Counted from the stretch's first letter, positions 11,968-56,581 are shown. The stretch is 64,000 nt of DNA from Armatimonadota bacterium (GCA_040769165.1 JAXGLP010000001.1:1451702-1515701), one strand, 5' to 3'. The notes: generated by a model not told the origin, from the letters alone. Numbers and translations are program-made.

Positions 11968-14900
11968 CTATCTGATGTCCCTGGGCCGTATGGCGGCTTC
12001 ACCTGCCGCATCCAACCCGACCCACCCCGGCTTTGCCACGACAACGATGTCTGACTGGGTCCTCGGCAGGAGCGTACTCACCAGATAGGTCTTGTACGCC
12101 TCACAGCTCGAGATGCCTGTAACCACGACAGCCACCCCCGCAGCAGGAATCTCCATCTCAGGCGCCCAGACAAACACGCCGCGGGTGCCTGTGCCGTCCG
12201 AAACGCCGCTTCCGTCGTCAATGTAGAACCAGTCCCGCCCCTTCAGCGTAACCACTCCGGACGTCTGGATCAGGAGGCCGATGTTGTTCAGACCGAGGCC
12301 TTTGCGTATGCCCCGCTGTGCCACGGAACCTCCAACCATCCAGTCTTCGCCACCAATGTATCCGCCGCGCATGAATACGGGGACTATGTCACCCAGTCCG
12401 GATTGCCTGGCCGCGGCAGCGGCGATGAACCGCTCACCGTCCTCATTAGTGCTGAGTTTTCCGACGATGTCGGCGCGCATGCCTGTGTCTAATGCGTGCC
12501 CATCGAGGTGTACGCGGATGCCGGCATTCCGCCCTTCGTCCTCGACATAGAAGACACCTGGCGCCGCATAGGTTACAGGAAGGCCCTGCAGAAAGACCGG
12601 CGCCCCGTCGGGTTTGGCCTTCCCTTCCGAGAGGGGCATGCCAGATGCACGCACCAGCCCGAATTTTGCCTGCGGTACCACAGCACCCAGCGCGCCTGCC
12701 GGACTTGTTCCGCACCAGGTGAGGGGGTCACCCGCCCCACTATCTGAATGATAGACAAGAGACCTGTTTCCCCCGGGCGAGAAGGCACAGACAAGACCAT
12801 TGCTCGTATAGTCCGTGCTGTTGTGCGAGAAGTCCACGATGAGGTTGTCGTTGCCGTTGTAATCAAACGGAGTGGTGAACGTGAACGTCTTCCAGCCGGT
12901 GGCGGATACCGTCTCACTGGCGGCCTGATACACCGTTGTCCACGGCGTGCATTCCCATGCCGCCGTGGCGTAGGAAGAAGCTGTTGTGTGCTTCATCCGG
13001 ATGTTCCAGTTATCCAGCGTCTGACCCGGAAGCTGCGAGATGTTCAGCGCCAGCGAGACTATCGTCGACGGACCCGCCCCAAGCTCCGATGCGAGGTATA
13101 TTACCTGTGTCCTGGAGTCGTGATACAAGGTGTGCAGCGGGTAGCTCCAGGTCGAGTCACACGTACCGACGGTGATTGTCGAAGGAGTCGTGAACGTGTA
13201 GCACTGGCCCCCGTTGTCGGCGAGCGTGCTGTTGCCGGGCGCATCCGCCGCCTCAACGACGAAGAAGTACTCAGTCTCCCGAGCGAGCCCTTCAACGGTG
13301 ATCGAGTGCGCCGTCGCCAACGACGTCTCACTCTCAACTACCGTATAGGGGCCTCCACAGACTGTACCGACCTTCACGACTCCGATAGCCGGCTCATCGG
13401 TGGTGAACGTGATCACCACGCCAACCTCTTCGGGCAGGCTGGAAATGGCGCTGATCACAGGACCAGCGCAGTCCAGAGATGCAGAACGCGTCTTCGTGAC
13501 GTTCGTGCCGCCCGTACCGTCATCGGCATCAAGATAGGTTACGGACAGCGTCCCCTGATGCGCAGTCTGCAGGGTTCCATCCTCGGGCCCCGCTTCTCCC
13601 GAACCTGTGGAAAGCGGACTCTCCGCATTGCTGAAGACGCCAGGAGTGGCCGGGACTTCGGCAAGAATGACAGTCTCCAGGTCACCGGCGGAACTCTCCG
13701 CGGTCACAGTGGCGGCGCCCATCCCTGCAAGGCCGGCATCTCGCAGCTCTATCACAACATGGTCAGCGCACGAGTAGATATCCCTGTCCAGCGCCAGACG
13801 TCCATCGGAAGGATGGAACCCGGCACTCCCGCTCAATGCCATCAGGACTGACGGCTCAGTCTCGTCGCTGCTCGCGATCACGAGAGTCCCCTCGTATTCG
13901 CCCACGGCGTCCGGCTGGAACTTCACATCGAATGTCACCGGGTCCCCTCCCGCCGGTATGGTGAACGGTGTTGCGGGCAGATTCTCCACGGAGAACACGT
14001 CACCGGCTGCCATTGCCGCGATGTCGGGCTGTTTGGGCAGAATCGGGCCCGGATACACGGGCCTGTCGCCCTCAGGAACGGCGTCAGGCGACAGCTCGCC
14101 TCCGAACGGGTGCGCGCAGTACCACTCCTGTTCCGCGGACATGACGTGGTCTGCCTCAATCGGTGGATCGAGCACGACATTGTCAAAATAGTCGTGCTTC
14201 ACTTCAGCTCCTCTGTAGGCGAATAGACCGATCCGGCCGGGACCGGCAAGACCTGAATCCGTCCCGCTCCACGCCAGGTTGCCGTTGAAGTACACCCGTA
14301 TCTGCGACCCCTGGAAGCTCACGTTCACAAGGTTGGGGGCCTCGCCCGTGGCAAGGTAAGGCGAAGACGTCCAACCGCCACTCAGCCAGGTCTCAGTGCT
14401 TCCGATGAATCGGATCACCCAGAACAAGCCTTGTGCGTTGATACCCACACCGTAAGCACTTCCCACTCCTCCATCGTAGACGAAATCATCCGAGCAGCGG
14501 AAGCACAGGCCCGACACGTAGCTTGTGTATCCGGTTCTGCGAAGGGTGACACTGAGGGACCCGTCTGCCCATTGATCCCCCGCATATAGCGACTGATAGG
14601 ACTGTCCGGAGGCCGTACTGTAGGCACTGTACTCACCCTGCAGGACGGTCCATGTGGGCGGTGGCAGCGGCTCCCATCCCTGAGCGGCCCCGTCTTCGAA
14701 GTCCTCCCGGTACTGGGCACCCGAAATACGCACATTGGAGACCTCCAGATCACCCCGTCCCGTGTTTGCTATCGTCACATGCTCGGTGCGCGCGTTATTG
14801 ATGAATACGGGACCGAAGGGCAGTTGGAGGTCATCCGCGGGCGGCAGGCTGTCCGTTACTTCGATCTCCGGCTGGAGGGGAATCACGTGTAGACTGACCA

Positions 14901-17900
14901 CACGAATCCAGTGGTGCTGAGTTGTCATGTTGGAGAACCGCACCTGTGCAGAGTAGTCCCCGGCTGTCAGGGCATTCACATCCGCTGTCAGAGACACCCT
15001 GACGGTAGCACTCTCACCCGGTGCCAGTACGCCGCCGGCCTGGCTGCACGCAGCCAGCCTCGAGCCCGAGACCGCAGCCCAGGTGAGCGCCTCGGTCCCC
15101 ATATTCTGGAGCGTATAGTCCGCCCCGTCCGGAATGAATGGTCCGCCCACCTGTCCGGTACTGGTGAATCCACTGGAAGGGGAAACCCTGAGCGCGTCGG
15201 CCGGCTCCACACCGAGCCGCAACTGTGGCACCTGTGTGCCCAGGGCGCCAGCCGGGGAACTGCCGCACCATGTGAGGGGGTCACCCGCTCCGCTATCTGA
15301 CTGATAGACAAGTGACCTGCTACCTCCCGGCGAGAAGGCACAGACCAGGCCGTTGCTCGTATAGTCCGTGCCGTTGTGCGAGAAGTCCACAATCAGATTG
15401 TCGGAACCGTTGTACTCGAACGGCGTGGGGAATGTGAACGTCTTCCAGCCGGTTGAGGTTACAGGATAACTGGAAGCCTGAAACACGGTTGTCCACGGCG
15501 AGCACTCCCACAACGCCGATGTGAACGAGGACGCGGGAGTGTGCTTCATCCGGATGTTCCAGTTATCCAGGGCCTGTCCCGGGATCTGTGAAACGTTCAG
15601 AGACAGTGAGGTAATCGTCCAGGGAGCCCCTCCAAGTTCCGAGGCAAGGTAGATTACCTGTGTCCTGGAGTCTTCATAGTAGGTATGCAGCGGGTAGCTG
15701 AACGTTGTGGCGCATGTGCCAACGGTTATTGTGGACGCAGTCGTAAACGGGTAGCACTGGCCGCCGTTGTCATCCGTCGCCACAGTGCCAACCACATCGG
15801 TTGCCTCCACAACGAAAACATAGCCAGTGGCGGGACTCAGCCCTGTCAGTTCAACCGTGTGCGCGGTGCCCCAAATCGGGTCCTCTGCTGCGATGATTTC
15901 CGGCCCACCGCAGACCATGGAGCAGTGCACGCGGCCCAGAGTGGGAACATTGGTGGCAAAGGTGACCGTTGCCGCCACACCGCTACTGGCATTCACGGCC
16001 ACATTCGTAATTGATATCGGCCTGCAGTCCGCAGTGGCCGTATCGGTCTTCGTCTCAGGCAGCCCGCTTCCATTATCAGCATCCTCGTACGAAGCTGTGA
16101 TCAACGCGCCGTCGCCAATCTGAAGAACCCCGTCGCCCTGCACGGGTTCTGCACCGGCCGTTTCTACCTGTCCCGCGAACACGCCCGGCTCTGGCGTCTC
16201 CGCAAGCGTCACAGTCTCTGTATCCCCTGTCGAACTGGAGACAGTCACAGGACATTCTCCGGCAGCCGCAAGATCGGAGTCGAGCACCTTGACAGAGACC
16301 GGCTCGCCACAGCGGTAGGTGACCTTGTCGAGCATGACCACCCCATCGGCCGACGCGCTTACGAGATTGCAGGCGACCAGCGCAAAATCCTGGTCGGTCG
16401 CATCAGCATTTCCCGGAACACCGTCACCACCAATCGAGACACCACGAACGACGATGTCAACAGCGCCGCTGGTCCCGGCGGGCAGCCGCACCAGTTCGTA
16501 GTTGTTGCGTACATCCGGCGCGCCGCCTGTCTGTGAGACATCCTTGTTGAAGACGTTTCCACGGTACAGGACGCCGTCCACGTACACCTCGAGATCAAGA
16601 TTGTTGACGTAGGCAGCCCCGGACAGCGCGCCCGGAGGGTCAGTCCACGCCAGAGACACTACCAGAGGTTCGCCCCCATCAGCCACAACCCCGCCAAGAT
16701 GGTATTGCTCCCCCGGCCCGGTGAGAATCTCCGTCTGGTCAACGACCTTCCTCGGCCTCGCTGCGTCGAAAGCGAAAGCGAGGTTGATGATCCCGAATCC
16801 CTGGCTGTTGCTGGGGAAGTTGTCGTTGGCGTAGAGCCCGGTCATGTGCCGCCCGGAATGAATGATGTAGGCCTTGAGCAGGGCCGGGCTTGGCTCGGCG
16901 ATACCGTACGTCCGCGAAAGGAAGTTATAAACGAGGGAACCGCAACCGGCCGCCGCCGGACACGAGTGGCTCGTTCCCGACGACCAGCAGTACAGAGTCT
17001 GCCCCGCTGGCATGTACTTGTCACAGACGCTGTCGCCAGTGTAGGCCGGGCTGGTAGATGTTGATGCCGCACCCTGAATGTGGGTGCCTGGCGCCTGGAT
17101 CTCCGGCTTGGCGCGGCCATCGTCGCACGGTCCACGGCTGGAGAAGTCTATGACGTCCTGCGCGTTGTTCGCCCCTGATGGTGGAACGTCGCAGCCATCT
17201 GTTATGCCGAGAGTATCGTAGTTCTCGCTGGCGCCGACCGAAATGACGTTCTTCCCGGTGGCGGGGCTGCCGATGCTGTACGACCCTGACCCTTCGTTTC
17301 CAGCGGAGAAGAAGAAGGCCATGGGCTGCTGTCCGGTAACCGTGGGCTGGCAGTCCCGGACAAAGCTATCGTACATCTGCGAGTCCGACGTGTAGTCGCC
17401 ATAGGCGTCAGTACCCCAGGAGTTGCTGCTGATGCGAACTCCCCACGCATACTGGCTGCTGACCATTGCAGCCTCGTTGATCGAAGACGGCCACAGTCCG
17501 CTATCAGAGAACACCTTGGTATGAGCCATCCTGCCGTAGGGCGAGATGCCCAGGCCGTAGTGGAACCCTGCCGCATCCTGAAACGGAGAGCCAGTGCTGT
17601 TGTTGCAGCCGCCCACAATGGAGGTATTGATGTTTCCGTGCCCGTCAACGCCGTTCGGGTTGGTGATCGTTGGAGACCCGCCGGGCGCAATTCCGGCAAA
17701 CACGACGCGTGAAGCAAGAGCGGGATCGCCCAGTTGCCTGAACTCGGAATTTCCCGGTGACGAGGCATTGCCGTTGTCAAAACCATCGTCAGTGACCACA
17801 ACAACGGGGTAGGCTTCAGGATCCGTTGGGAATCCGTACGATTCGAGGAAGGACAGGTAGCCAGGCCCGGTTGGCGCCGTCCTGCCCGCGTTGAGATTGT

Positions 17901-18792
17901 CGGCGAGGATCTGACCCTGCCGCTCGCAGTTGAGGTGTTTCTCGAGATACGGCTCTATCCACACCACCCCCGGCACAGCCGCCAGAGACTCCAGCAGACT
18001 GCCTGCGATTTCTATGGAGACGTTGATATATCGTCCGCTCAGAACCTCGCGCGGCGGAACGATAACAGACTGTGCATCCGCGGCGATCTGGTCTGCCGCC
18101 TGGACGGCATCCTCGCCGTAGTTGAAAACCTGCACGGTGACCCGGACAGGATCCTCCTTGCCACAGGCTTCATCCAGAGCGGGGCTCAGCGCAAACCACG
18201 GATGATACTCACCAACAAAGGCCGTGTAAGGCTCGGACAGGAGCGCTGATGCGAGTCCGGGGGACGACGCTTCGTCAACCCATATGAGATAGGCGTTTTG
18301 TGGAATGTAGTGGACAATGCTGGCCCCCACGGACTTGAGAAGGGCGAGGTCCTCGTCCACAGGCGGCGCGACAAATTGAACCAGCATCAGCCGGCTCTTC
18401 GCCTCAGAGCTGGCCGTCAGGCGTTCGGGCAACGCGAATTCGGGCTTGCGCGTATCTATCTTTTGGCGGCGCAGTTCAATGAAGTTGAAGTCTTCGCGCA
18501 CCACGGCGCCAGTGCTGTTCTCAAGCGTGGACTTCAGACTTGCCGGGGCTTCGTACACCAGATAGGAGTCGCGGCGCGCCAGCAGCTTCGCCCCGGCGGC
18601 ATCCAACCGCGTGATGTCTGCCCGGGCATCGGCCGACACCAGAACACGGACTTTCGTGTCCTGGTCCTCCCCGGCAATCGCCGGCCCAAACGCAACCGCG
18701 AACAGGAAAGCACACGAAAGAGCAAACGCCAGACGATAGCGCTTGCTAGACTTCCAGTAACCGAAGCACTCGACCAAACCGTTGGTCTTCAT
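11968..18792 (-). CDS. Giant secreted subtilisin-like serine protease (peptidase S8), 2274 aa, carrying the shared C-terminal module
   Basis: Signal peptide plus propeptide. S8 catalytic triad motifs VVTDDGFD (Asp), DGHGNINTS (His), SGTSHSCPAAAG (Ser). Then FN3-like and beta-sandwich repeats. C-terminal ~200 aa shared with six other proteins. AAGGAGGGGG RBS. Confidence 0.85.
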   Translation of the reverse strand: MKTNGLVECFGYWKSSKRYRLAFALSCAFLFAVAFGPAIAGEDQDTKVRVLVSADARADITRLDAAGAKLLARRDSYLVYEAPASLKSTLENSTGAVVREDFNFIELRRQKIDTRKPEFALPERLTASSEAKSRLMLVQFVAPPVDEDLALLKSVGASIVHYIPQNAYLIWVDEASSPGLASALLSEPYTAFVGEYHPWFALSPALDEACGKEDPVRVTVQVFNYGEDAVQAADQIAADAQSVIVPPREVLSGRYINVSIEIAGSLLESLAAVPGVVWIEPYLEKHLNCERQGQILADNLNAGRTAPTGPGYLSFLESYGFPTDPEAYPVVVVTDDGFDNGNASSPGNSEFRQLGDPALASRVVFAGIAPGGSPTITNPNGVDGHGNINTSIVGGCNNSTGSPFQDAAGFHYGLGISPYGRMAHTKVFSDSGLWPSSINEAAMVSSQYAWGVRISSNSWGTDAYGDYTSDSQMYDSFVRDCQPTVTGQQPMAFFFSAGNEGSGSYSIGSPATGKNVISVGASENYDTLGITDGCDVPPSGANNAQDVIDFSSRGPCDDGRAKPEIQAPGTHIQGAASTSTSPAYTGDSVCDKYMPAGQTLYCWSSGTSHSCPAAAGCGSLVYNFLSRTYGIAEPSPALLKAYIIHSGRHMTGLYANDNFPSNSQGFGIINLAFAFDAARPRKVVDQTEILTGPGEQYHLGGVVADGGEPLVVSLAWTDPPGALSGAAYVNNLDLEVYVDGVLYRGNVFNKDVSQTGGAPDVRNNYELVRLPAGTSGAVDIVVRGVSIGGDGVPGNADATDQDFALVACNLVSASADGVVMLDKVTYRCGEPVSVKVLDSDLAAAGECPVTVSSSTGDTETVTLAETPEPGVFAGQVETAGAEPVQGDGVLQIGDGALITASYEDADNGSGLPETKTDTATADCRPISITNVAVNASSGVAATVTFATNVPTLGRVHCSMVCGGPEIIAAEDPIWGTAHTVELTGLSPATGYVFVVEATDVVGTVATDDNGGQCYPFTTASTITVGTCATTFSYPLHTYYEDSRTQVIYLASELGGAPWTITSLSLNVSQIPGQALDNWNIRMKHTPASSFTSALWECSPWTTVFQASSYPVTSTGWKTFTFPTPFEYNGSDNLIVDFSHNGTDYTSNGLVCAFSPGGSRSLVYQSDSGAGDPLTWCGSSPAGALGTQVPQLRLGVEPADALRVSPSSGFTSTGQVGGPFIPDGADYTLQNMGTEALTWAAVSGSRLAACSQAGGVLAPGESATVRVSLTADVNALTAGDYSAQVRFSNMTTQHHWIRVVSLHVIPLQPEIEVTDSLPPADDLQLPFGPVFINNARTEHVTIANTGRGDLEVSNVRISGAQYREDFEDGAAQGWEPLPPPTWTVLQGEYSAYSTASGQSYQSLYAGDQWADGSLSVTLRRTGYTSYVSGLCFRCSDDFVYDGGVGSAYGVGINAQGLFWVIRFIGSTETWLSGGWTSSPYLATGEAPNLVNVSFQGSQIRVYFNGNLAWSGTDSGLAGPGRIGLFAYRGAEVKHDYFDNVVLDPPIEADHVMSAEQEWYCAHPFGGELSPDAVPEGDRPVYPGPILPKQPDIAAMAAGDVFSVENLPATPFTIPAGGDPVTFDVKFQPDAVGEYEGTLVIASSDETEPSVLMALSGSAGFHPSDGRLALDRDIYSCADHVVIELRDAGLAGMGAATVTAESSAGDLETVILAEVPATPGVFSNAESPLSTGSGEAGPEDGTLQTAHQGTLSVTYLDADDGTGGTNVTKTRSASLDCAGPVISAISSLPEEVGVVITFTTDEPAIGVVKVGTVCGGPYTVVESETSLATAHSITVEGLARETEYFFVVEAADAPGNSTLADNGGQCYTFTTPSTITVGTCDSTWSYPLHTLYHDSRTQVIYLASELGAGPSTIVSLALNISQLPGQTLDNWNIRMKHTTASSYATAAWECTPWTTVYQAASETVSATGWKTFTFTTPFDYNGNDNLIVDFSHNSTDYTSNGLVCAFSPGGNRSLVYHSDSGAGDPLTWCGTSPAGALGAVVPQAKFGLVRASGMPLSEGKAKPDGAPVFLQGLPVTYAAPGVFYVEDEGRNAGIRVHLDGHALDTGMRADIVGKLSTNEDGERFIAAAAARQSGLGDIVPVFMRGGYIGGEDWMVGGSVAQRGIRKGLGLNNIGLLIQTSGVVTLKGRDWFYIDDGSGVSDGTGTRGVFVWAPEMEIPAAGVAVVVTGISSCEAYKTYLVSTLLPRTQSDIVVVAKPGWVGLDAAGEAAIRPRDIR
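12660..13800 (-). repeat. Internal duplicated unit 2 of the S8 protease gene (approx. aa 1665-2045)
   Basis: Second copy '...ITFTTDEPAIGVVKVGTVCGGP...NLIVDFSHNSTDYTSNGLVCAFSPGGNRSLVYHSDSGAGDPLTWCG'. About 65-70% aa identity to unit 1 by eye. Confidence 0.6.
15210..16350 (-). repeat. Internal duplicated unit 1 of the S8 protease gene (approx. aa 815-1195)
   Basis: Protein segment '...DGVVMLDKVTYRCGEPVSV...VTFATNVPTLGRVHCSMVCGG...NLIVDFSHNGTDYTSNGLVCAFSPGGSRSLVYQSDSGAGDPLTWCG' recurs about 850 aa downstream. The antisense track ORFs 14988..15392 and 12573..12917 share 'WTSRTTARTIRA'. Coordinates approximate. Confidence 0.6.
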
Positions 18793-38840: not shown

Positions 38841-38845
38841 TTCGT
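38809..38845 (+). terminator. Rho-independent terminator after paralog 1
   Basis: GGCCCGGAGCG-GAAA-CGCTCCGGGCC followed by TTCTTTCG. Confidence 0.7.
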
Positions 38846-39076
38846 CCGGGAGCAGTGCGGGCAGGTATTTGTACGGATTGACGGGAGGCGCGAGAAGCAG
38901 TACAAAGAACTAAGAAATGCGTGTCAGCCGCCCATCGCACGAGGATGCGAGCGCGTCGGCCGCATAGGCCAGCGCACTCATGTTCCGTCTTGTGCCAGGC
39001 AGCCGCCGTTCTGGATGGCGCCCGCGGGTGGCTTCCGCTTTGCTTGCTGCCTCTGCATCGAAAGGAAGAGAGGGAC

Positions 39077-41590: not shown

Positions 41591-41621
41591 GCGTTCATCA
41601 GAGAGCTGACCTGTTCGATTC

Positions 41622-41658
41622 GAGGCCCGGAGCGGAAACGCTCCGGGCCCTCTTTTCC
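41622..41658 (+). terminator. Rho-independent terminator after paralog 2
   Basis: GGCCCGGAGCGGAAACGCTCCGGGCC followed by CTCTTTTCC. Confidence 0.7.
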
Positions 41659-41952
41659 TGGGCTCCTGATACTGTAGAGCACGGCAGAGTGCGGCACGGA
41701 GAAGGTTTTTTGCGTTGATTTTGCCTGCACGAGGCCTGCATGGATTGACTTTGGCGCGGCTGAAGATGTACACATTAGGCAGGGTCCGCGCGCCCGTGGA
41801 GGTCTCAGGAACTCTGCCGGGACGCTGACTGTGGCCGAATCGCGTGGGCTCGAATGTCGTCGAAAGCCCCGCAGGCGCCGTTTGCGGAGGGTGCTTGCAC
41901 GAGGGCTTTATGTCAGTCGTCTGTTAATGGGAAGGAAAGGAAGAGAGGGATC

Positions 41953-45671: not shown

Positions 45672-48122
45672 TTACGCAAGTTCAAGGATCTCCTCCACAC
45701 TCGGAAGGCCGGACGGCCCAGCGCCGTCGCGCAGCACGGACGACTGCGTGTCCTGATCGTAGTCCACCCAGATGCAGCGATCCACCATGTCGTGTATCGA
45801 ATCAATGTGGGTGATGAGCAGAATCTGCGGGAAGCTGCCCTTCAGGTTGTCGAGAAGAGCGATCACGTTCTCCCGGCGCAACTCGTCGAGAGAACCAAAG
45901 ACCTCGTCCAGAATCAGCAAGCCGAGTTCGATGCCCGCGCGCTCGGCGATCATCTGCGAAACTCCGAGCCGCAGGCACAGATGCAGGATATCCTCCTCGC
46001 CCCCGGAGACAACCGGCTTGTGCTCTCCCTCTTCGTAAAGCCGGGGCGCGAAATCGTCGTCGAGGTCCATCTGGCTGTAGCGCTCGGGTGCAACCTGCGA
46101 CAGGAAATCCGACGCGGCCTCTTCCAGGCGCGGCTTGATCTGAGCGCTGAGGGCGGCGCGCAGCTCATCCAGAGCCTGCACGAGCGCCTCGAGGTGCCGC
46201 TGCTCGGACTTCTTCTCATCGAGCACCTTCAGGCGGGACTTCTGCTCTTCTTCCTGCCTTTCAGTATCCTTGAGCAGTGCCTCCGCAGTCCGAACATCCG
46301 ACTTCAGGCTGACGGCCTCTTCGCGTGCCGTCCGGGCAGCGAACTCAGCCTTCTGGCGGCTCGCGACGAGGTCGTTGTGCGCCTTTTCGTCGAAGGCAAG
46401 CGCGGCGATCTGGGCCTCCACTTCCGCCGCGTTCTTGAGCAGATCGTTAAGGCGCGCGGTCTGTGCGCTCAGGTCACGCTCCACCTCATCGCGCCGAGCC
46501 ACTCGCGCCTGCAACTGGGTGAGGCGGTCGCGCTGTGGCTTGAGTTCCCTGCCGCGACTGCGTACCCGCTCAAGCTCATCCGGATCGAAGTCGCCTTCGA
46601 TTGCGCTCAGCTTCTTCTCGCTCGCCTGCAACTGCGCCCGCAGGTCTGCAAGCTGCGTCTGCTCGCGCTTGAGCTGCTCCCCGGCGGTTTCCGCGCGGGT
46701 GACGGCTTCACGGGCAACGGAAAGGGACTTCTCGGAATCCTCGAACTGCGTCTTGAGGCGTGTCAGTTCGGCAGGCTGTGCTTTGAGGCTCGCAATCTCC
46801 GCGTCCATCTCGCGCACAGATTGGCCGGCAGCCGACAGGTCGCGCTTCATCTGACCCGTGACTTTGTCGAACTCCGCGCCCAGCGGACGCTCACAGGTGG
46901 GGCACACTCCATCAGGCCCGGCCTTCTCGACCTGCCGGAGATGCTCCGCAAGCTCGCTCTGGCGCGCCCGCGCTGTGCGTGCCCCGGCCTCCGCCGACGA
47001 CCTCCGCCGCACGAGATCACTCTGGGCGGCTTCGAGTTCGGAGCGCATCTCCGCGTTCTGCTGTGCCGCCGCCTCCGCCCGCTTGCGCAACTCAATGAGG
47101 GAAGCGAACTGCTCTTCAAGAACCCGTATGCTCTCCAGCGTCCGGGATATCTGAGTTGTCGTCTGGGTTATCGCTGTCCGAATGCCGCTTCTCTGGGCGT
47201 CGGCGGCCTTCAGCTCCAGGAGATGCTCGTTGCGCGTTTTGAGTTCTTCGTATTCCCGGGCGAGGGGTTGCAGCTCCTGCACTTCGGCCTGCGCGGCCTC
47301 GATCCCGTCCCGCTCGCCCTGCACCCGGGCGATGTTCTCGCGAATCACTGCTTCCTGACTGCGCACGAGGTTGAGGTTCGCGCCGAGCGACTCATGGAGT
47401 TTATGTTTGTTCAGGGATGCGTCTACTTCCGGAACAATCTTGTCCAGTTCCGCCTGAGCCTGCAACGCCAGCGCCTCCCCCTCCTCTAGCTTCGCGCGCG
47501 CCTCCTTCACCGCCGCTTTCTGCTCGGCCTTGCGCGCCTTGATGCTTTCGGGGTCCCCCAGCCCCTGCACCAACCCGTCTATCGTGCGGCCGCACTGCAG
47601 CTTCTCGTCATTCGCAAGCGCGCGCGCCTTCGAGAGCCGCTCGTAGCCGAGAAGCTTCCCGATGTAGGCCTCGCGTCCTTTCGAGCTGACATCCTTCAGA
47701 AACGCAAGGTCCTTCTGCCCTGTAAAGAAGCTGGTAAAGAAGGCCTGAGGATCCATGCCCAGCAGCTGCCCAACCTTCTGGGTCACATTCTCCGTGCCGG
47801 TCGCCAGCTGCGTATCGCCGGAGAAGAGTGCGGCATCGTTGAGACGGCGCACCACACGGAAGGGCTGGCCCGCAAGGTCGAAATCGAGGGTCACTTCCGG
47901 AACTTCGCCCCTCTTCGAGCCGCGCGACCGGATGGTGTCCGCCTTGCCGCGCTCCATCCGCTGAACGGCCTTCTGGCCGTAGAGTGCCCACGCGATAGCT
48001 TCGAGGAGCGTGCTCTTGCCCGCCCCGTTGCGGCCGATGATGCCGGTGATCCCGTCCTGAAACAGGATGTCCGTCTCTTTGTGCTGACGGAAGCTGCGCA
48101 GCTTCAGTGAAAGCAGTCTCAC
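45672..48122 (-). CDS. sbcC: DNA double-strand break repair ATPase SbcC/Rad50
   Basis: N-terminal Walker A GRNGAGKSTLLEAI. Long coiled-coil with CPTCERPL zinc hook. C-terminal signature/D-loop LILDEVFGSLD. Confidence 0.85.
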   Translation of the reverse strand: MRLLSLKLRSFRQHKETDILFQDGITGIIGRNGAGKSTLLEAIAWALYGQKAVQRMERGKADTIRSRGSKRGEVPEVTLDFDLAGQPFRVVRRLNDAALFSGDTQLATGTENVTQKVGQLLGMDPQAFFTSFFTGQKDLAFLKDVSSKGREAYIGKLLGYERLSKARALANDEKLQCGRTIDGLVQGLGDPESIKARKAEQKAAVKEARAKLEEGEALALQAQAELDKIVPEVDASLNKHKLHESLGANLNLVRSQEAVIRENIARVQGERDGIEAAQAEVQELQPLAREYEELKTRNEHLLELKAADAQRSGIRTAITQTTTQISRTLESIRVLEEQFASLIELRKRAEAAAQQNAEMRSELEAAQSDLVRRRSSAEAGARTARARQSELAEHLRQVEKAGPDGVCPTCERPLGAEFDKVTGQMKRDLSAAGQSVREMDAEIASLKAQPAELTRLKTQFEDSEKSLSVAREAVTRAETAGEQLKREQTQLADLRAQLQASEKKLSAIEGDFDPDELERVRSRGRELKPQRDRLTQLQARVARRDEVERDLSAQTARLNDLLKNAAEVEAQIAALAFDEKAHNDLVASRQKAEFAARTAREEAVSLKSDVRTAEALLKDTERQEEEQKSRLKVLDEKKSEQRHLEALVQALDELRAALSAQIKPRLEEAASDFLSQVAPERYSQMDLDDDFAPRLYEEGEHKPVVSGGEEDILHLCLRLGVSQMIAERAGIELGLLILDEVFGSLDELRRENVIALLDNLKGSFPQILLITHIDSIHDMVDRCIWVDYDQDTQSSVLRDGAGPSGLPSVEEILELA

Positions 48123-49267
48123 AGTTTCGCCTCCTCTTCGGCGGCCTTCGCCAGATACTGCGAGCCAAGAGCCGAGAGCCGTTTCGGGTCTATTCCGCGG
48201 GGCAGGCCCTCGAGGGCCTCCGCGAACTCACGCCACTCCACCTCCAGCGGCCGGGACGATCCAGCGACGCCATCAGCGGCCGCCTGACCGGCGCGGGCAG
48301 GCGGGCGGAGCGCAAGCTCGAGATGCATCGCCTGGCTCTTGAGTTCACGAAGCCGCCCCCAGTCCAGGTCGCGCTGGATGGAACGCGGAATGCCGTCAAC
48401 GACAACCCGCACAATCCGGTCCTGCAGCCCGTTCAGCCCGGCAAGCTGTGTTTCGATAGCACCCATAATCTCTTCGCCGCAGAGGTCTTCGGCGGCCAAC
48501 GGGGCCAGATCGTGGACTTCGCGAAGTCCGGGCGTCCCGTGAACCTCCACTTCCGGGCCCTCGCTGTCGTAGATCAGATATCCCTTGGAAGGCCCGCGGG
48601 CCTCCTCCCAGATGTTCGTGCTCGTGTATTCGGTGGCGCCAGAGTAGAAGCAGTTCGGCGCGATCTCGGTTCGAATGTGATAGTGCCCGACGGCAATGTA
48701 GTTCCACTCGTCGAAGTACAGCTCGCCCGGGTCAAGCTGCACCGGGTCGTGCATTCCGTACGCCACTCCCCGGACGGTTCCGTGAAGCGCCAGAACATTG
48801 ACGCCGCCTCCTTCCGCCGGGCGAACCTGCGTGTTGCGTTCGTGAAGCGCGAAATAGGGCAGGCAATAGACCCTGCAGCCGAGACCGTCAAACCCTAGGC
48901 CCTCGTACCCGTGATGCCTCACATACACATGCTCGAAAGCATCCGGAAACAGGTCGAGAATGCACCCCGCGTCGGTGGATTTCGGCGTGTCGTGGTTTCC
49001 TCCCACAATCACGATGGGCGTGTCGTATTTCCGCCGGAACCGCGAGAACAGACGGAACGTCTTCTGGATGACCAGGTTGCTCGGGCGCACGGTGTGGAAC
49101 ATATCGCCAGCGATGACGATCAGGTCCACGTTCCTGCCCGTGACATCAACCAGCACCCGCTCGAAGGCGCCGAACACATCATCCTCACGCTGATTGACCC
49201 CCTCCGGCGTCAGGCGCGCGTAGGCGCGATACCCGAGATGCACATCAGAAATGTGGGCTATTCGCAT
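48119..49267 (-). CDS. sbcD: DNA repair nuclease SbcD/Mre11
   Basis: Calcineurin-like phosphoesterase motifs DVHLG, GDMFH, GNHD, ...HGT.... ATGA overlap with sbcC start. Confidence 0.85.
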   Translation of the reverse strand: MRIAHISDVHLGYRAYARLTPEGVNQREDDVFGAFERVLVDVTGRNVDLIVIAGDMFHTVRPSNLVIQKTFRLFSRFRRKYDTPIVIVGGNHDTPKSTDAGCILDLFPDAFEHVYVRHHGYEGLGFDGLGCRVYCLPYFALHERNTQVRPAEGGGVNVLALHGTVRGVAYGMHDPVQLDPGELYFDEWNYIAVGHYHIRTEIAPNCFYSGATEYTSTNIWEEARGPSKGYLIYDSEGPEVEVHGTPGLREVHDLAPLAAEDLCGEEIMGAIETQLAGLNGLQDRIVRVVVDGIPRSIQRDLDWGRLRELKSQAMHLELALRPPARAGQAAADGVAGSSRPLEVEWREFAEALEGLPRGIDPKRLSALGSQYLAKAAEEEAKL

Positions 49268-49270
49268 CTG

Positions 49271-51298
49271 CTATCCCTTCTCGAAAGGATCGTAGTCATC
49301 GCCGCCCGCGGACGCCACGCGCGGCGCTCCGAAGCCGCCCGGTCCCGCCGGGGCAACCTGAGGCTGGCTCTTCGCGAGCTTCTTCAGCACCGCCAGCGGA
49401 TCGGGCGGGCATTCGAGCCTGATCCGGTTCAGCGCATTGATGACCGACTCGCGGTCGGATTCCTCCACCACCGCGCGCACCGCGTCGGTCGTTACCGTGC
49501 GGTCGTACTCGCGGCACACCCGCACCGCGACATCTTCGAGCGAAAGCTCCCCGGCCTCCGGAAACAGCTTGATGCCGTCCGACCCGCGCAGGATGTTCGG
49601 ACGCGGGAACTTCACGAATATCGCCTGGCTGAAGTGCGGATGCCGCACCATAAGTTGCCCCTTGGAAAGCGTCGCGAGCTTCTCGCGCTCAGCCCGGCTT
49701 AGAACCTGATACCCCGGCGTCGAGAGTTCGTCCATATCCATGCGCCCGTACATTGACGTGCCGCAGTTGCCAACGACCCGCTTGTGCACCTGGCTGCGAA
49801 ACTGCTGCGCGCTGAACAGAACCAGCCCGATATAGCGGCCGCGCTCCGAGATATCGAGAAGCGTCTTCTTGAGATATGTCTCCGGTCCGTCGCTCGGGGC
49901 GTACTTGTTCAGCTCGTCAACGACAACGACGCACTTCTCGACGCCTAGCTTCTTCTTCTCGAGATACTCCCGCAGCTTGCTGACGACGCGCGTCACGACA
50001 AGGTCCTGCCCCTGGGCATCCATCTTCGCGATGTCTATGACGTAGATGCTGCCCGGCTTGAACTCGCCCCACGGCAGGTCGGCGCAGCGCTCGTCGCGCT
50101 CGACGAGCAGCCCCCGGTAGCGCGTCACGAGGTTGGAGAGGCGGTTGTACACCTTGCGGATGGTCATCACGTTGTGCGTGCGGAACTGCTCTTCGCCGCG
50201 GCCGCCTTTCTCGTCTTCCAGATGCTTGAGGAGCTGCCGGAACCAGCGCTCGAGGTCCTGAAACGTGCGGACAGGGGGAAGGCAATCGCCATTCGAGAGT
50301 TTGATCCCGTTTTCGTCCCGGATGACCGTCTGGTTGATGTACTGGATGAACGCGTCGGCCTTGGCGTCTATGTCATCGCGGTTGAGAACAACCTCCGCGA
50401 ACTCGAGAATGTCGGTGAGGCCCCAGGCGAGCGCCGAGACGTTGTGCGTCACATCAGGGTTCGACCGGAGGGTGCTGAGGTTGAACTGGTCCTCTTTATA
50501 CGGCGCGTAGTAATGGACATCCCGAAACGCTTCGCAGGGCACGCCGAGCGCGTCGTACATCGCGAAGTCGTCGGGCGTGAGCTGCCCCACCCCGAGCTTC
50601 TCGTACCGCTCCGCCAGATCGGGGTCCTCGGGGCTCTGATCCGGGTAGTCCAGGAACAGCATGTCGTGTCCCTTCACGTTGAAGCAGACACACGCGACGT
50701 TGTCCTGAGTCGCGAAGATGCTTTGAAGCAGAAACTCGATGGCGCTCGTCTTGGTCGCGAGCCCCGAGACGCCCGTCAGCGTAGCGTGGGCCGCCTCGGG
50801 CCCCAGCAGGAACTCGGCGTCGAGCAGCACGGGTGAGAGCATCTCGCCGTTCTGATAGACGCCGATGGGCACGCCGGTCTTTTCGGCATAGGTGTCCATC
50901 CGCAGCGAGCGCTTGACGCAGAAATCGTCCGACAGGTACACCGGGCCCACCGGAACGGGCTGGACAGGCTCCTCCGGGTCTCGCCGGAGCACCGCCGCTG
51001 TGTAGCAACGAACTTCCGGCCTGCGGGTCATCGGCTCGTTGTCGGGCCGCTCCTCCATGCCGATGTAGTCGTGCATGGCTGAGGCCACATCGGTAAATGA
51101 CCACGCCTCGATCACGACGCCGTACACCTGGGTCGCACCCGCGTCAACAACGACCAGCGTCCCGATTCCCACCGGCGACCCCTCGCCCGTCCAGAAGTGG
51201 AACTCGTACGCGGTATTCGGCTTCGCTTCGGTCGCGACGACACGCCCGACCTGCCGCAGATCGGCGCTGAACCCCGCCTTCTCGCCTTCCATAGTCAT
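49271..51298 (-). CDS. herA: HerA-like DNA helicase/ATPase (FtsK-HerA superfamily)
   Basis: N-terminal HAS-barrel-like region (GRVVATEAKPNTAYEFHFWTG...GTLVVVDAGATQVYGVVIE). Walker B VVVVDELNKY. Putative P-loop reads GVSGLATKTS, which is non-canonical by eye. Sits between nurA and sbcD. Confidence 0.65.
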   Translation of the reverse strand: MTMEGEKAGFSADLRQVGRVVATEAKPNTAYEFHFWTGEGSPVGIGTLVVVDAGATQVYGVVIEAWSFTDVASAMHDYIGMEERPDNEPMTRRPEVRCYTAAVLRRDPEEPVQPVPVGPVYLSDDFCVKRSLRMDTYAEKTGVPIGVYQNGEMLSPVLLDAEFLLGPEAAHATLTGVSGLATKTSAIEFLLQSIFATQDNVACVCFNVKGHDMLFLDYPDQSPEDPDLAERYEKLGVGQLTPDDFAMYDALGVPCEAFRDVHYYAPYKEDQFNLSTLRSNPDVTHNVSALAWGLTDILEFAEVVLNRDDIDAKADAFIQYINQTVIRDENGIKLSNGDCLPPVRTFQDLERWFRQLLKHLEDEKGGRGEEQFRTHNVMTIRKVYNRLSNLVTRYRGLLVERDERCADLPWGEFKPGSIYVIDIAKMDAQGQDLVVTRVVSKLREYLEKKKLGVEKCVVVVDELNKYAPSDGPETYLKKTLLDISERGRYIGLVLFSAQQFRSQVHKRVVGNCGTSMYGRMDMDELSTPGYQVLSRAEREKLATLSKGQLMVRHPHFSQAIFVKFPRPNILRGSDGIKLFPEAGELSLEDVAVRVCREYDRTVTTDAVRAVVEESDRESVINALNRIRLECPPDPLAVLKKLAKSQPQVAPAGPGGFGAPRVASAGGDDYDPFEKG

Positions 51299-52305
51299 AT
51301 CAACCTCGCATCCATCTCAACCTGACTGGGCGATATCGCCTTCAGATACTGCTCGCAATCCCTTATCGGGTAGATCATCCTGTCCCACCGGCCGTCGGGG
51401 AGGCTCACGGGGCATCGTTCGGCCAGAATCCACGCCGAGATCGCGTCTGCATGCCTGATCGCCTCCGGCCCCGGCTTGGCCTCCACGCGCACGAGTCCGA
51501 ACGATGGGTCTTGAGCCCTGTCTTCGCGCAGCCGCACGTACCACGAATACGCCGAGTGGAAATCGCCTTTGTGCGTGCGGAAGACGCTCGTCCGGCGCCC
51601 TTCCGGCAGCTCCATAATCCGCCGGTACTCCTCGCCGGTGAAATAGCGCGTCTGGTGGCTTTTGATAAGCCCCACCACCCGTTCGGAACCCGGGCTATCG
51701 AGCGACAGCGGAATGCCGCCGTCCACAAGCAGCCAATCGTGCGGCCCCGCAGCCGGACACCACTGCCGCGTGAGTTCCTGCTCCAGTTCGGCCCGCGCCT
51801 TTCCGACAGCCCTGTGGGCGGCTTCGCGCACAGCGGCGGGATGGTCGCGGTCGGCCGGCTTCATGTCGCGGGGGAAAGACGGTGCGCAGTCGAGACAATC
51901 CAGAGCGTCTTCGAGAAACCGCTCCGGCGGGCACAGTTCGAACGGCATGACGAGCGCCTCGCGGGTGCGGACAAAGCCGCGGAAGGTGGACATACGCCGG
52001 TCGGCGCCGCGCACCCGGACGGCGGCCGCCACGAACGCCCGCACAACTGGCAGGAGATTGTAGGTCAGGACGATCTTCGTCCTCTGCACGCCGTCCAGAA
52101 AGTGAGTCAGACCGGACACGTCCGCGACAGCCACTTCGCGCTGCTCCAGGGACGTGCCTTCCACCACTTCGGCTTCGACGGTGTGCGCTTCGGCGTCCGG
52201 CAGACGCATGCCGTCTTCGTCCCAGATGTGACCAGTAACAGGCCGAACCGAACTGTCGCCGGCGTTCCGGCGCAGGTGATGCTGCAGTTTTTGTCCAAAG
52301 CTCAT
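51295..52305 (-). CDS. nurA: NurA-like 5'-3' nuclease
   Basis: 336 aa, acidic catalytic-type residues, in operonic position with an ATGA overlap to herA. Assignment rests on family resemblance plus the conserved HerA partnership. Confidence 0.55.
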   Translation of the reverse strand: MSFGQKLQHHLRRNAGDSSVRPVTGHIWDEDGMRLPDAEAHTVEAEVVEGTSLEQREVAVADVSGLTHFLDGVQRTKIVLTYNLLPVVRAFVAAAVRVRGADRRMSTFRGFVRTREALVMPFELCPPERFLEDALDCLDCAPSFPRDMKPADRDHPAAVREAAHRAVGKARAELEQELTRQWCPAAGPHDWLLVDGGIPLSLDSPGSERVVGLIKSHQTRYFTGEEYRRIMELPEGRRTSVFRTHKGDFHSAYSWYVRLREDRAQDPSFGLVRVEAKPGPEAIRHADAISAWILAERCPVSLPDGRWDRMIYPIRDCEQYLKAISPSQVEMDARLI

Positions 52306-54469: not shown

Positions 54470-56581
54470 CTACGGCCTCACGATATCCCCCGGAGACCTT
54501 GGCACAAGAACGGGTATGCTGCCGGTGGGGCCGGCCTCGAGTTGCGCGATGCCCGTAACGCGCACCATCGCGCCCAGCGAAGGCGGAGTGCCCGCGACAG
54601 GCGTGATCACCTTGAGACCCGAACCCGAAGCCGACCCGTCGTTGAGCGTGAAGTAGCCGGTACTGCGTATTGTTACGCGGCCCCAGGTGTCCACAAGCAG
54701 CCCTATCGTGCCAAGCCCCTTCGCTGCGGGATCGCCGGACGTCCAGGTAACTTGTGCCGGGCGGCATGCCAGACTACGTATATCGCCCCCGTATTCGATG
54801 TCGGAGACTCTCTGACAGTCGCGCAGGTAACGCTCGCCCGTCGGCTTCGTCCCGAGCACTCCGACGATCTGCACCATTCGCCCGGGCGTGAACACGTCCG
54901 TGGACTCGGCGCGAATGCCCGCGCTGCGATCCTGCTGCTGCACGTAGTTTGCCCCGGCCTGCTGCGAGCTTGCTGTGACGAGCAGCCCCGAAGCGATGAC
55001 GCGGGTGCCATCGACGAACTGACCCGCCTCCCCCAGCCTGCTCATCTGGACGGGCTGCGGAGCAAGCGGGCTGACGGCGAAATCCTCGCGCGACACCGCG
55101 CCGGGAAGCACGCGCACATCACGCCGCGAGGCGATATACCCCGCCCCGTTGATGGCATAGACCGGGTACACCGTCCCGGACGCCGCGGCCGGCATTCCTG
55201 TAATGGTATAGTAGCCGTTGCCGTCCGTCTGAGCGGTATAGGCCGACCCGGGGCGCAGCACGGTGGCGTTGTCTATCGGCTCGCCCGTTATCGCATCCAC
55301 AACTCGCCCGAAGAGCACCCCGTCCGTCGCCAGAGCCGGGTCGCGCCAGGGCATGGCAGGCGTCGGCGCGGGTAGTGCGAACAGCGTGCTGCCGATGTAG
55401 CTGTACCAGGACCAGTCTGTCTCCCCCGTGCCGTCTTCGTTGCTGTCCACGGTCACGGCATACGAGTAGTTGACGGTGCCGTTCGCCCCGGCGTCCAGGC
55501 AGTACTGCATCTGGGTGACGCTGTCCGGCATAGTGTTGAGGTAGTTCGCCTGCCCGCAGAAAACGTGGCGGTCGTGCCGCCAGACGACTACCCTGTTGAT
55601 CCAGTTCCGGTACCAGAGCGCATTGTTGGGGACCGCCTCGCGCTTGTAGTTCATGGGACAGGCAGCGTCGAGCCATCCCTGCGCCATCCAATGCTCCCAG
55701 TTCTGAAAGAGCTTGTATGCGCTGGTTGAGGTGAAGAGCGAAGGGGCATCTCCAAAGGAGATGAGCGCGGCAGTGTGCCTGAGCGGCTGCCGCGGGTTTG
55801 TGGTGATTAGCGGGAGTTCGGCCCGGACGCGCGCTACGAGTTCGTTGATGGTGCGCCGTCTGAAATCATCCCACTGAGCGTCACCCGAGGCGGCTGGCAC
55901 ATCGGTGCGGCCCGTGATCCGCTGAAACCGGCTGAGGCCGGATTTGTTATACGACGCGACGGCCGGGTAGCCTGCATCGGCCGAGGTGTAGCGGATGTAA
56001 TCCCAGTGTATCCCGTCAATCGCGTAGTTCGTCGCCAGCTCCCTGACGATGGAAACGAGATGCTCCTGAACTGCGGGGCAGCCCGGGTCGAGCGTGTACT
56101 TGCCATCCACCGTTGCCACCGAGCCCATCGAGCCAGACGGTACCATTAGCCACTCGGGGTGGCTGGCGAGCAGGCTGTTGCCAGCGGGCGGCCACGATGT
56201 GGACACCCTGTATGCCACCAGCCAGCAATGCACCTCGATGCCGGCGGCGTGCGCCTTCTGGACAAGATACGCCAGCGGGTCTATCCCGCCGGAGATGTCG
56301 GTGGCTTTCGGGACGAGAGAGGAGTTCCAGTAAGCCCCGTGGCCGCCGCCCGCGGTGTCGTGGTAGGCCAGCACTTCGGGGATGATTGCATTGTACTTGC
56401 CCGCCACGGCCCTGGCGACAAGAGAGTCAATCTGAGACGTGCTCTTGAAGCCGGAATGGAAGGCATCCGCCCAGAAAGCCCGGAACACTCCATCGGCGCT
56501 TACTGGCAGGTGAGCAGCAGCCAGGGTAAGCGCAGTAACCAGCGCAGCCATGAGAGAACGAGGGAACTGCTTGACGATCAT
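54470..56581 (-). CDS. Secreted glycoside-hydrolase-like family 10 (GHL10) protein with carboxypeptidase-regulatory-like domain and the shared C-terminal module
   Basis: Start at ATG 56581 (GGAAAGG RBS) inside the longer track ORF; signal peptide MIVKQFPRSLMAALVTALTLAAA. FRAFWADAFHSGFK TIM-barrel start typical of GHL10. C-terminal module at about 54470-55040. Confidence 0.75.
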   Translation of the reverse strand: MIVKQFPRSLMAALVTALTLAAAHLPVSADGVFRAFWADAFHSGFKSTSQIDSLVARAVAGKYNAIIPEVLAYHDTAGGGHGAYWNSSLVPKATDISGGIDPLAYLVQKAHAAGIEVHCWLVAYRVSTSWPPAGNSLLASHPEWLMVPSGSMGSVATVDGKYTLDPGCPAVQEHLVSIVRELATNYAIDGIHWDYIRYTSADAGYPAVASYNKSGLSRFQRITGRTDVPAASGDAQWDDFRRRTINELVARVRAELPLITTNPRQPLRHTAALISFGDAPSLFTSTSAYKLFQNWEHWMAQGWLDAACPMNYKREAVPNNALWYRNWINRVVVWRHDRHVFCGQANYLNTMPDSVTQMQYCLDAGANGTVNYSYAVTVDSNEDGTGETDWSWYSYIGSTLFALPAPTPAMPWRDPALATDGVLFGRVVDAITGEPIDNATVLRPGSAYTAQTDGNGYYTITGMPAAASGTVYPVYAINGAGYIASRRDVRVLPGAVSREDFAVSPLAPQPVQMSRLGEAGQFVDGTRVIASGLLVTASSQQAGANYVQQQDRSAGIRAESTDVFTPGRMVQIVGVLGTKPTGERYLRDCQRVSDIEYGGDIRSLACRPAQVTWTSGDPAAKGLGTIGLLVDTWGRVTIRSTGYFTLNDGSASGSGLKVITPVAGTPPSLGAMVRVTGIAQLEAGPTGSIPVLVPRSPGDIVRP

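Follow-up and report, generated by a model that had tools for sequence, protein, structure and literature searches.

The window analyzed here, by which we mean the whole 64,000-nt stretch of DNA, contains seven ORFs for secreted proteins, and reading of these ORFs and their translations indicates that every one of them closes with a C-terminal module of ~190 residues. Copy A (11971-12633, minus strand) constitutes the C-terminal 221 aa of a 2274-aa S8 subtilase (gene 11968-18792) that has a Pfam match to Peptidase_S8; the last 22 of these aa (11971-12036, minus strand) form a tail past the module and end in ...AAIRPRDIR. Copy B (30260-30862, minus strand) is the C-terminal 201 aa of a 742-aa secreted protein without a Pfam domain (gene 30257-32485), and the label of "putative peptidase" that an initial annotation gave to this protein finds no support in Pfam or NCBIfam. 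Copy C (32619-33197, minus strand) forms the C-terminal 193 aa of a 1109-aa protein (gene 32616-35945) with CarboxypepD_reg and FN3/Pur_ac_phosph_N domains. On the plus strand, the C-terminal 197 aa of each of three paralogs are made up by copy D (38183-38773; FlgD_ig-domain paralog 1, gene 36272-38776), copy E (40997-41587; paralog 2, ORF 38921-41590) and copy F (43864-44454; paralog 3, ORF 41854-44457). Finally, copy G (54473-55036, minus strand) is the C-terminal 188 aa of a GHL10 and CarboxypepD_reg protein (ORF 54470-56839).

Sec-type signal peptides are recognizable by direct reading in all seven carriers, in the case of E, F and G only from an internal start codon (MNRTQF..., MTRKPS... 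and MIVKQFPRSL..., respectively) that is likely the true start. A crude signal-peptide heuristic applied to raw ORFs is non-discriminating (73% of carriers versus 40% of non-carriers); our statement on export signals is taken exclusively from what was read in the sequences themselves, for the seven window proteins and for a 281-aa family described below.

A genuine domain common to heterogeneous exported proteins

An HMM built from the seven copies matched exactly these seven in a six-frame translation of the window. HMMs built with one group left out recovered the omitted copy with E-values of 6e-31 (A), 3e-32 (B), 9e-40 (C), 7e-21 to 8e-23 (D, E and F) and 6e-27 (G), and found no further window ORF at E≤10. 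Pairwise identity between modules is 25-39% among non-paralogs and 89-95% within the D/E/F group. The leave-one-group-out HMMs, together with the family size and distribution given below, rule out chance or local duplication as the origin of this likeness. Thus, the module is a genuine, ancient domain that is common to heterogeneous signal-peptide-bearing proteins, and the proposal that seven proteins in this region end in one common module is confirmed by the ORFs, the seven-copy HMM and the leave-one-group-out HMMs alike.

Several details of that proposal need adjustment. The single ordered motif series ascribed to all seven proteins does not hold for all of them: in D, E, F and G the "GGEDW...GQRG" segment is deleted and GLPDD or GLGT stands in place of the GLNN of the other copies. 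Similarly, a stop within 1-10 residues of the module does not hold for the S8 protein with its 22-aa tail, and the "IRPRDIR" quoted for it belongs to this tail rather than to the PR...DI of the module. The N-terminal parts, described as unrelated, are indeed heterogeneous, but they represent five independent architectures and not seven, as the carriers of D, E and F are paralogs with 76-96% identity and those of B and C have a short FN3-like stretch in common.

A large and so far unnamed family

No family in Pfam-A or NCBIfam, be it SLH, PPC, PEP-CTERM or a choice-of-anchor family, covers the module in the seven window proteins, nor do these libraries contain a domain that falls on the module in common among 59 other carriers. 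Searches with isolated modules at E≤10 gave only sub-threshold OB-type hints (RMI2, tRNA_anti-codon and DUF5818). The window carriers have no match to Por_Secre_tail, TIGR04183 or other sorting HMMs, and a sub-threshold choice_anch_D match in protein A is located at aa 1599-1645, outside of the module. A known domain is therefore ruled out within Pfam-A, NCBIfam, PDB sequences and PDB folds, and the Pfam and NCBIfam searches bear out the initial impression that the module corresponds to no named anchoring or sorting domain. Relatives are annotated in databases only as "hypothetical protein", and we found no description of the module in literature on secreted C-terminal domains of Armatimonadota/Armatimonadetes, OB-folds and Fervidibacter. 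The C-terminal 58-aa barrel of the Fervidibacter GH10 is a different and much smaller element. Within the libraries searched, the module is a large and so far unnamed domain family.

Direct reading of the module C-termini likewise upheld the observation that they lack a terminal hydrophobic or TM helix and a basic tail, which rules out a PEP-CTERM, LPXTG or other sortase- or exosortase-type signal; PF07589 (PEP-CTERM) also has no match on the window carriers. In contrast, a neighboring ORF (56971-57702) encodes a borderline PEP-CTERM protein, which scores 20.8 bits where the cutoff is 20.7.

An exhaustive search of representative sequences identified 4,977, 3,697 and 899 representatives at E≤1e-3, 1e-10 and 1e-30, respectively. 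The census is taken from this search; a word-indexed homology search with a 29-sequence profile returned 11 matches only. A degenerate DNA pattern, designed by hand to encode GLNN[IV]GLL[VI]xTxG, served to scan genomes; only ~40% of family members have it. Among the matches listed, 110 of 111 loci from at least ~35 assemblies were confirmed by HMM, nearly all of the named assemblies belong to the Armatimonadota, and a single assembly has up to at least 13 modules. The fumarase encoded in the window, too, is most similar to those of Armatimonadota MAGs. A tblastn search of 72,556 plasmids gave no match. Judged by the matches listed for a scan pattern that covers ~40% of its members, the family is centered on and expanded in the phylum Armatimonadota and is probably largely phylum-specific. 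The suspicion that seven copies in one region signal a large genome-wide family is substantiated by both the representative search and the motif scan. Within the libraries searched the module is not an already characterized domain, and it is not a piece duplicated locally but is spread genome-wide and phylum-wide.

The position of the module within its carriers is biased but not fixed. In 120 of 154 representatives no more than 30 aa separate the module from the C-terminus, in 23 it is followed by more than 60 aa, and 21 (~14%) contain 2-3 copies. The genomic copies among the matches listed are similarly distributed, with 73 of 95 (~77%) C-terminal versus 22 of 95 (~23%) internal with >60 aa downstream, and internal modules may be followed by up to 900 aa. 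There is also a stand-alone family of secreted 281-aa proteins, one member of which is on a 3.29-Mb contig, that consists of the module with essentially no cargo. Carriers overall range from 281 to >2,500 aa and include S8, GHL10, NosD/beta-helix, LRR, RCC1, LVIVD, SBBP, Chlam_PMP and Ig passenger domains, a variety which argues for a generic rather than a substrate-specific role. A subset of the family exhibits an extra conserved RPRD or NPRH motif at the extreme C-terminus.

Clustering of neighboring genes at 110 loci among the matches listed revealed no co-conserved processing or anchoring gene and no specific partner; the only recurrent neighbors are large surface proteins and the abundant class of proteins with a prepilin-type N-terminus. 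The gene neighborhoods consequently offer no receptor candidate, and the co-conserved processing or anchoring enzyme that the initial annotation had envisaged does not adjoin the carriers at these loci.

Tandem OB fold of the module

A model of copy C indicates that the module is a tandem OB-fold comprised of two homologous five-stranded beta-barrels that are connected by a conserved linker, GGGDW...GQxG...GLNNIGLL. It has the five-stranded closed beta-barrel and topology of an OB fold and is superposable on known OB folds. The two barrels are the product of an ancient internal duplication. The best structural matches among PDB folds are the RPA32/RPA14 trimerization core, Stn1/Ten1 and the RMI1/RMI2 OB folds, but no solved structure in this search fits the whole two-barrel unit (TM normalized to query ≤0.40). 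A search of viral structures in BFVD gave generic OB folds only. An AF2 model of the copy A module with its tail has a pLDDT of 89.1, and the RPRD tail is predicted by AF2 to be docked onto the module (pLDDT 85) rather than free.

Conservation reaches its maxima in OB loops L23 and L45 (DRSxGIRV, GER, DDGS and TGISSC) and in the linker. Judging from secondary-structure topology rather than from coordinates, these loops probably correspond to the usual ligand-contacting elements of OB folds. The conserved cysteine of the second barrel has no significant partner column in an analysis of disulfide covariation. Six of the seven window copies are acidic (pI 4.5-5.2), as is the family (median pI 5.1, 73% below 6, median net charge -4), and aromatic content in the family is modest (median 6.6%).

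Possible envelope tethering and alternative roles

As the best explanation we tentatively favor a non-catalytic module that binds one conserved envelope or matrix ligand. The module is fused to many enzymes and repeat proteins that are exported via Sec but otherwise unrelated, in most cases as their C-terminal part. It would recognize a single ligand belonging to the envelope or matrix of the cell itself, for example a scaffold protein, a glycan on the surface or a protein of the outer membrane, and this binding would keep the diverse exoproteins tethered at the cell surface. The occurrence of internal, multi-copy and stand-alone modules, and the absence of a conserved neighbor gene, are a better fit to position-tolerant binding or tethering of the SLH, CBM or dockerin type than to an obligate C-terminal tag. 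A precedent for envelope binding is provided by YgiW, YdeI and SipA, periplasmic OB-fold members of the BOF family that bind outer-membrane porins or OmpA as well as peptides (PMC6370654). Points that count against tethering are the weakness of the link to BOF (E 0.23 by sequence), the lack of a conserved partner gene, and hence of a receptor candidate, at the 110 listed loci, and the C-terminal bias of ~77%, which would fit a sorting role as well.

A sorting role was also the initial proposal, which viewed the module as a dedicated signal comparable to the T9SS CTD, LPXTG and PEP-CTERM. In such a scheme the module would be a secretion or sorting domain for a lineage-specific outer-membrane translocation or attachment machinery. 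Its function would then be analogous to that of the T9SS CTD or of the PPC domain, which is cleaved, and export may be followed by its removal. This appears unlikely, even though most modules are located at the extreme C-terminus of heterogeneous signal-peptide-bearing cargo, the family is lineage-restricted and multi-copy per genome as are T9SS CTDs in Bacteroidota, and a subset has the additional RPRD/NPRH motif. It is at odds with the internal position of ~23% of modules, with up to 900 aa downstream, with the 2-3 copies in ~14% of carriers and with the secreted family that essentially lacks cargo. Moreover, the fold is a tandem OB and not the Ig-like sandwich of known CTDs, no sorting HMM matches, no machinery gene is co-located at the 110 listed loci, and AF2 places the RPRD tail against the module instead of leaving it free. 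We regard as doubtful, too, the more specific version in which the tandem OB is the address tag of a previously unrecognized Armatimonadota-specific surface-display or outer-membrane translocation system, with a dedicated receptor or translocon and with the RPRD/NPRH subfamily marking a processing variant.

The module could instead function as a CBM does, with the tandem OB binding an environmental polysaccharide or other polymer and so bringing the attached enzymes to it. OB stands for oligonucleotide/oligosaccharide-binding and OB-fold CBMs such as CBM10 exist; glycosidase-like and beta-helix proteins (GHL10, NosD/Beta_helix) are among the carriers, and CBMs, too, typically occur internally, in tandem and on their own. 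However, the carriers include many proteins that are not carbohydrate-active, namely S8 proteases, LRR, RCC1 and Ig repeat proteins and LVIVD/SBBP propellers. Aromatic content is modest, and conservation of the putative binding loops extends to all carriers and genomes, so that these different proteins would all need a single polymer target. Polymer targeting is also an improbable explanation.

We consider it quite improbable that the module mediates protein-protein assembly, either by homo- or hetero-oligomerization or by a cohesin-dockerin-like docking to a scaffold that would form multi-enzyme complexes. Its best structural matches are indeed OB protein-protein interaction modules, and the predicted docking of the RPRD tail in one subfamily hints at a peptide-binding surface. 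Nevertheless, this structural likeness reflects fold class and not function, and no scaffold-like partner with repeated receptor domains is located near carriers at the 110 listed loci. Binding of extracellular DNA or another nucleic acid via the canonical OB surface, which could for example anchor enzymes in an eDNA-containing biofilm matrix, is very improbable given the acidity of the modules and the lack of a nuclease domain among the recurrent families of the carriers scanned.

Armatimonadota are widespread polymer degraders that have barely been cultured, and to our knowledge their protein export and envelope display are essentially unknown. One domain is common to thousands of predicted exoproteins of this phylum, including proteases, glycosidase-like enzymes and adhesin-like repeat proteins. 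The module thus marks the extracellular proteome of the phylum and offers a starting point for learning by what means these proteins are retained or sorted. At a minimum it deserves a family definition, by which several thousand "hypothetical" regions become annotatable. If the module does tether or sort proteins, it would be the first built from OB folds to do so and a possible surface-display tag; if it is specifically an address tag, it would be a functional equivalent of the T9SS CTD made from OB folds.

Comparison with known systems highlights several similarities and differences. The BOF family (YgiW/VisP, YdeI and SipA; PDB 1nnx) resembles the module in being exported proteins with a YgiW-like OB fold, but the link at the sequence level is not significant (carrier profile versus YgiW, E 0.23; no PF04076 match at E≤10). 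BOF proteins are also stand-alone, single-domain proteins of ~110-130 aa from Proteobacteria, whereas the module is a tandem duplicate with a unique conserved linker that is fused to large exoproteins in Armatimonadota. The OB folds of RPA32/RPA14, Stn1/Ten1, RMI2 and the aaRS anticodon-binding domain (tRNA_anti-codon, PF01336) are cytoplasmic or nuclear and bind nucleic acid or form complexes, in contrast to the secreted, acidic module. The T9SS CTD (Por_Secre_tail/TIGR04183, Bacteroidota) and the module are both lineage-specific, mostly C-terminal, present many times per genome and attached to heterogeneous Sec-exported carriers. However, the T9SS CTD is an Ig-like beta-sandwich of ~80-100 aa that is obligatorily C-terminal, while the tandem OB of ~190 aa is also found internally, repeated and as a stand-alone protein. 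SLH, dockerin, CBM and LysM domains have no sequence or fold kinship with the module, but like the module they are non-catalytic and occur on diverse secreted enzymes, at the ends of proteins, within them, in repeats or on their own; each binds one common class of ligand.

A shared C-terminal module and its carriers in the window

All seven ORFs that the initial annotation had credited with a common C-terminal module are present, and the translation of each closes with a stretch of 188-221 aa that is colinear with the others. By translation and HMM, these modules lie at 11971-12633 (minus strand; copy A, in an S8 subtilase), 30260-30862 (minus; B, in a 742-aa protein), 32619-33197 (minus; C, in a 1109-aa protein), 38183-38773, 40997-41587 and 43864-44454 (all plus; D, E and F, in three paralogs) and 54473-55036 (minus; G, in a GHL10 protein). 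An HMM built from the seven copies matched these seven alone in a six-frame translation of the window, which is ~63% GC over 64 kb. In the module region non-paralogous copies are 25-39% identical, while D, E and F are 89-95% identical. When the HMM was built without each independent group in turn, the omitted copy was regained at E values of 1e-21 to 1e-40, with no further window match at E<=10. Since the group-omitted HMMs regain each copy and nothing else, the similarity is, on this sequence evidence, real, ancient and specific. The motif series previously listed for all seven copies is incomplete in D, E, F and G, where the GGEDW...GQRG segment is missing and the GLNN motif varies.

Sec-type signal peptides can be read directly in all seven carriers, with an internal start codon required in E, F and G. 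Apart from the paralogy of D, E and F and a brief FN3-like stretch common to B and C, the passenger regions are unrelated, as had been claimed. Pfam matches are Peptidase_S8 in A, CarboxypepD_reg and FN3/Pur_ac_phosph_N in C, FlgD_ig in D, E and F, and GHL10 and CarboxypepD_reg in G, with no match in the B passenger. The stretch common to B (30257-32485) and C (32616-35945) covers ~80 aa at 30-33% identity and corresponds to FN3/Pur_ac_phosph_N repeats on the C side; B has no other recognisable domain, leaving its description as a putative peptidase unsupported. D, E and F are three tandem paralogous genes (36272-44457, plus strand) with passengers 76-96% identical, each laid out as an N-terminal FlgD_ig domain, ~500 aa without a Pfam match and the module. 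They are transcribed divergently from B and C, so that a single cluster at 30.2-44.5 kb takes in five of the seven carriers. A segment of at least 300 nt occurs twice within the S8 gene in direct orientation, at 81% identity (12670-12969 and 15223-15522, spacing 2553 nt), and one of the two copies is directly upstream of the module; from the sequence, this indicates a domain duplication inside the gene.

Several neighbouring genes were also noted. A 232-aa ORF (11178-11876, plus strand), which has a signal peptide and matches no Pfam family, is convergent to the S8-gene 3' end, and its synteny is kept in three metagenome contigs (L112-L114). The ORF at 56971-57702 (plus strand), divergent from the GHL10 carrier and previously called a canonical PEP-CTERM protein, matches that Pfam family only at the border (20.8 bits, cutoff 20.7; E 4e-4) and has a weak DUF6777 match. 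Additionally, two ORFs of 675 and 336 aa without Pfam matches (49271-52305, minus strand) are directly upstream of, and co-oriented with, SbcD- and SbcC-like genes at 45672-49267, with which they may constitute an uncharacterised DNA repair or defence operon.

Size, distribution and naming of the family

Searched exhaustively with HMMER, a set of 1.84 billion representatives at 50% identity contained 4,977 proteins with E<=1e-3, of which 3,697 reached E<=1e-10 and 899 reached E<=1e-30. In GTDB species-representative genomes, the motif GLNN[IV]GLL[VI]xTxG, found in ~40% of members, was also scanned for at the DNA level, with a degenerate pattern made by hand. This yielded at least 111 loci, 110 of the 111 listed being HMM-confirmed, in about 35 assemblies, with up to at least 13 confirmed modules in a single assembly. 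A separate tblastn search of 72,556 plasmids gave no match. The expectation of a large genomic family was therefore borne out. Among the matches listed, all phylum-labelled assemblies are Armatimonadota/Armatimonadetes except one Gemmatimonadales-binned contig, and the remainder are labelled "uncultured bacterium". The exceptional contig (L070, WVYX01000253.1, 1241 bp) has a confirmed module; it may have been binned wrongly, or the module may occasionally occur in other phyla. The family is centred on the Armatimonadota, with strict restriction to that phylum not proven as the scan rests on one motif and its list of loci is a lower bound. Its size and distribution define a genome-wide and phylum-wide class, which rules out local duplication as the source of the module. 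One close homologue of D/E/F, P0005 (GX616_19900), is labelled "Planctomycetes bacterium" at NCBI; the MAG holding it is probably taxonomically mislabelled. The window itself is Armatimonadota: its fumarase is 100% identical to proteins on large NCBI contigs, and the nearest named relatives, at ~80% identity, are Armatimonadota MAGs.

Profile searches of Pfam-A and NCBIfam gave no match across the module in the seven window proteins, confirming within these collections that no named domain corresponds to it. Among 59 carriers of other genomes no Pfam/NCBIfam family was common to more than six, and those found were all passenger domains. Isolated modules searched at E<=10 gave only sub-threshold OB-type hints (RMI2, tRNA_anti-codon and DUF5818), with tRNA_anti-codon reaching 15.6 bits against a cutoff of 27. 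Homologues are labelled "hypothetical protein" in public sources, and no description of the module was found in the literature. The module does not belong to BOF, tRNA_anti-codon, T9SS CTD, PEP-CTERM or another Pfam/NCBIfam family, and is a member of the OB-fold class at the level of fold.

Predicted fold, conservation and a tail subfamily

An AlphaFold2 model of copy C from a 13-sequence alignment (mean pLDDT 91.8, pTM 0.87) contains two five-strand blocks, OB1 and OB2, separated by a ~40-residue linker. No solved structure in Foldseek fits the whole two-barrel unit (query-normalised TM-score <=0.40). The module sequence profile matches archaeal RPA14 over OB2 (E 0.004), and the OB1 profile matches that of OB2 (95.5% probability, E 1.6e-8), which indicates that the module arose by internal duplication. 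Against PDB sequences, the sole match of the 59-carrier profile is a weak one (E 0.23) to E. coli YgiW of the periplasmic BOF family, with which it has in common the N-terminal pattern AK-l-D-t-V-L-G-V ... YV..D.S..I.V. Conservation across a 162-sequence module alignment peaks at DRSxGIRV (beta2-L23-beta3) and GER (L45) in OB1, at GGGDW...GQxG...GLNNIGLL in the linker, and at DDGS (beta2/L23) and TGISSC (beta4) in OB2; from the model secondary structure and standard OB topology, these motifs are predicted to map to OB loops. The TGISSC cysteine (profile column 173) occurs in 78% of the 162 members, among them copies A and B of the window, and no other cysteine covaries with it significantly in that alignment. 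A lone conserved cysteine is unusual in an exported domain and might be functional.

The initial annotation had every protein stopping soon after the module. This fails for the S8 protein, which has a 22-aa extension (11971-12036, minus strand) that includes the quoted IRPRDIR. Such tails, present in 14 of 166 carriers (~8%), consist of a 20-25-aa Pro/Ser/Ala-rich linker and, in the final 10 residues, a conserved [TVI]RPRD.. or NPRH.. motif (also in P0017, P0041, P0044, P0047, P0049, P0051, P0054, P0055, P0060, P0064, P0065 and P0118). In the AlphaFold2 model of the S8 module with its tail, the linker has a pLDDT of 59 and the terminal AAIRPRDIR block one of 85, so the tail is predicted to be placed on the module rather than free. 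A tail docked in this way would hint that the module has a surface for binding peptides, or that the strand is intramolecular or swapped, and the tail could be a docking strand, pseudo-ligand or processing motif.

Possible roles of the module

The extracytoplasmic tandem OB-fold domains described here, borne by heterogeneous exported proteins, form a new family that is large and centred on the Armatimonadota. Our tentative preference, at somewhat less than even chances, is for a binding or tethering module that would attach its carriers by recognising a single conserved ligand belonging to the envelope or matrix of the cell itself. This is favoured because the passengers are functionally diverse and the module tolerates several positions (both set out below), because conservation gathers in the loops and linker and not in the barrel core alone, because the OB fold is a binding fold, and because the BOF proteins, the nearest exported OB proteins, have outer-membrane proteins and peptides as ligands (PMC6370654).

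The proposal of a candidate new surface-anchoring or sorting domain stands in that the module is new and common to exoproteins genome-wide, and an anchoring role is plausible, but positional data speak against a dedicated sorting signal, and a secretion or sorting domain is unlikely. Among 154 representatives with a near-full module, it ends within 30 aa of the C-terminus in 120 and within 10 aa in 89, while more than 60 aa (up to 919) follow in 23; by eye, these downstream parts include sequences similar to CarboxypepD_reg repeats, and C-terminal ends similar to the FGE-sulfatase family. Two or three copies occur in 21 of the 154. Of 95 modules at genomic loci that could be followed as far as a stop codon, 73 are terminal and 22 internal. 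There is also a 281-aa family, kept in several MAGs and with one member on a 3.29-Mb contig, in which only ~60 aa separate a signal peptide from the module; other short matches are mostly gene fragments. Such internal, repeated and stand-alone arrangements argue against a signal that must be C-terminal. Beside carriers at 110 loci, there is no specifically recurring gene family.

A CBM-like module binding polymers is about equally improbable. The passengers of the carriers, which include NosD/Beta_helix/DUF1565, S8, LRR, RCC1, LVIVD, SBBP, NHL, Chlam_PMP, Ig and CarboxypepD_reg, form a typically extracellular or surface repertoire in which carbohydrate-active enzymes do not dominate, and this functional diversity argues against substrate targeting. 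Oligomerisation or docking is more doubtful still. Binding of eDNA, despite the fold class, is very improbable since acidic modules argue against electrostatic nucleic-acid binding: six of the seven window modules have a pI of 4.5-5.2, and the family has a median pI of 5.1 (73% below 6) and a median net charge of -4.

The module is a solid, annotatable domain from a phylum that has been little studied, and the proposed binding of an envelope or matrix ligand is a hypothesis on its function that can be tested. That many secreted proteins of one lineage have a non-catalytic module in common is a known kind of phenomenon; this family, and the use of its fold in such a role, appear undescribed in the resources searched. 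In its internal, repeated and stand-alone occurrence the module resembles SLH, CBM, dockerin and LysM domains, which are similarly tolerant of position.
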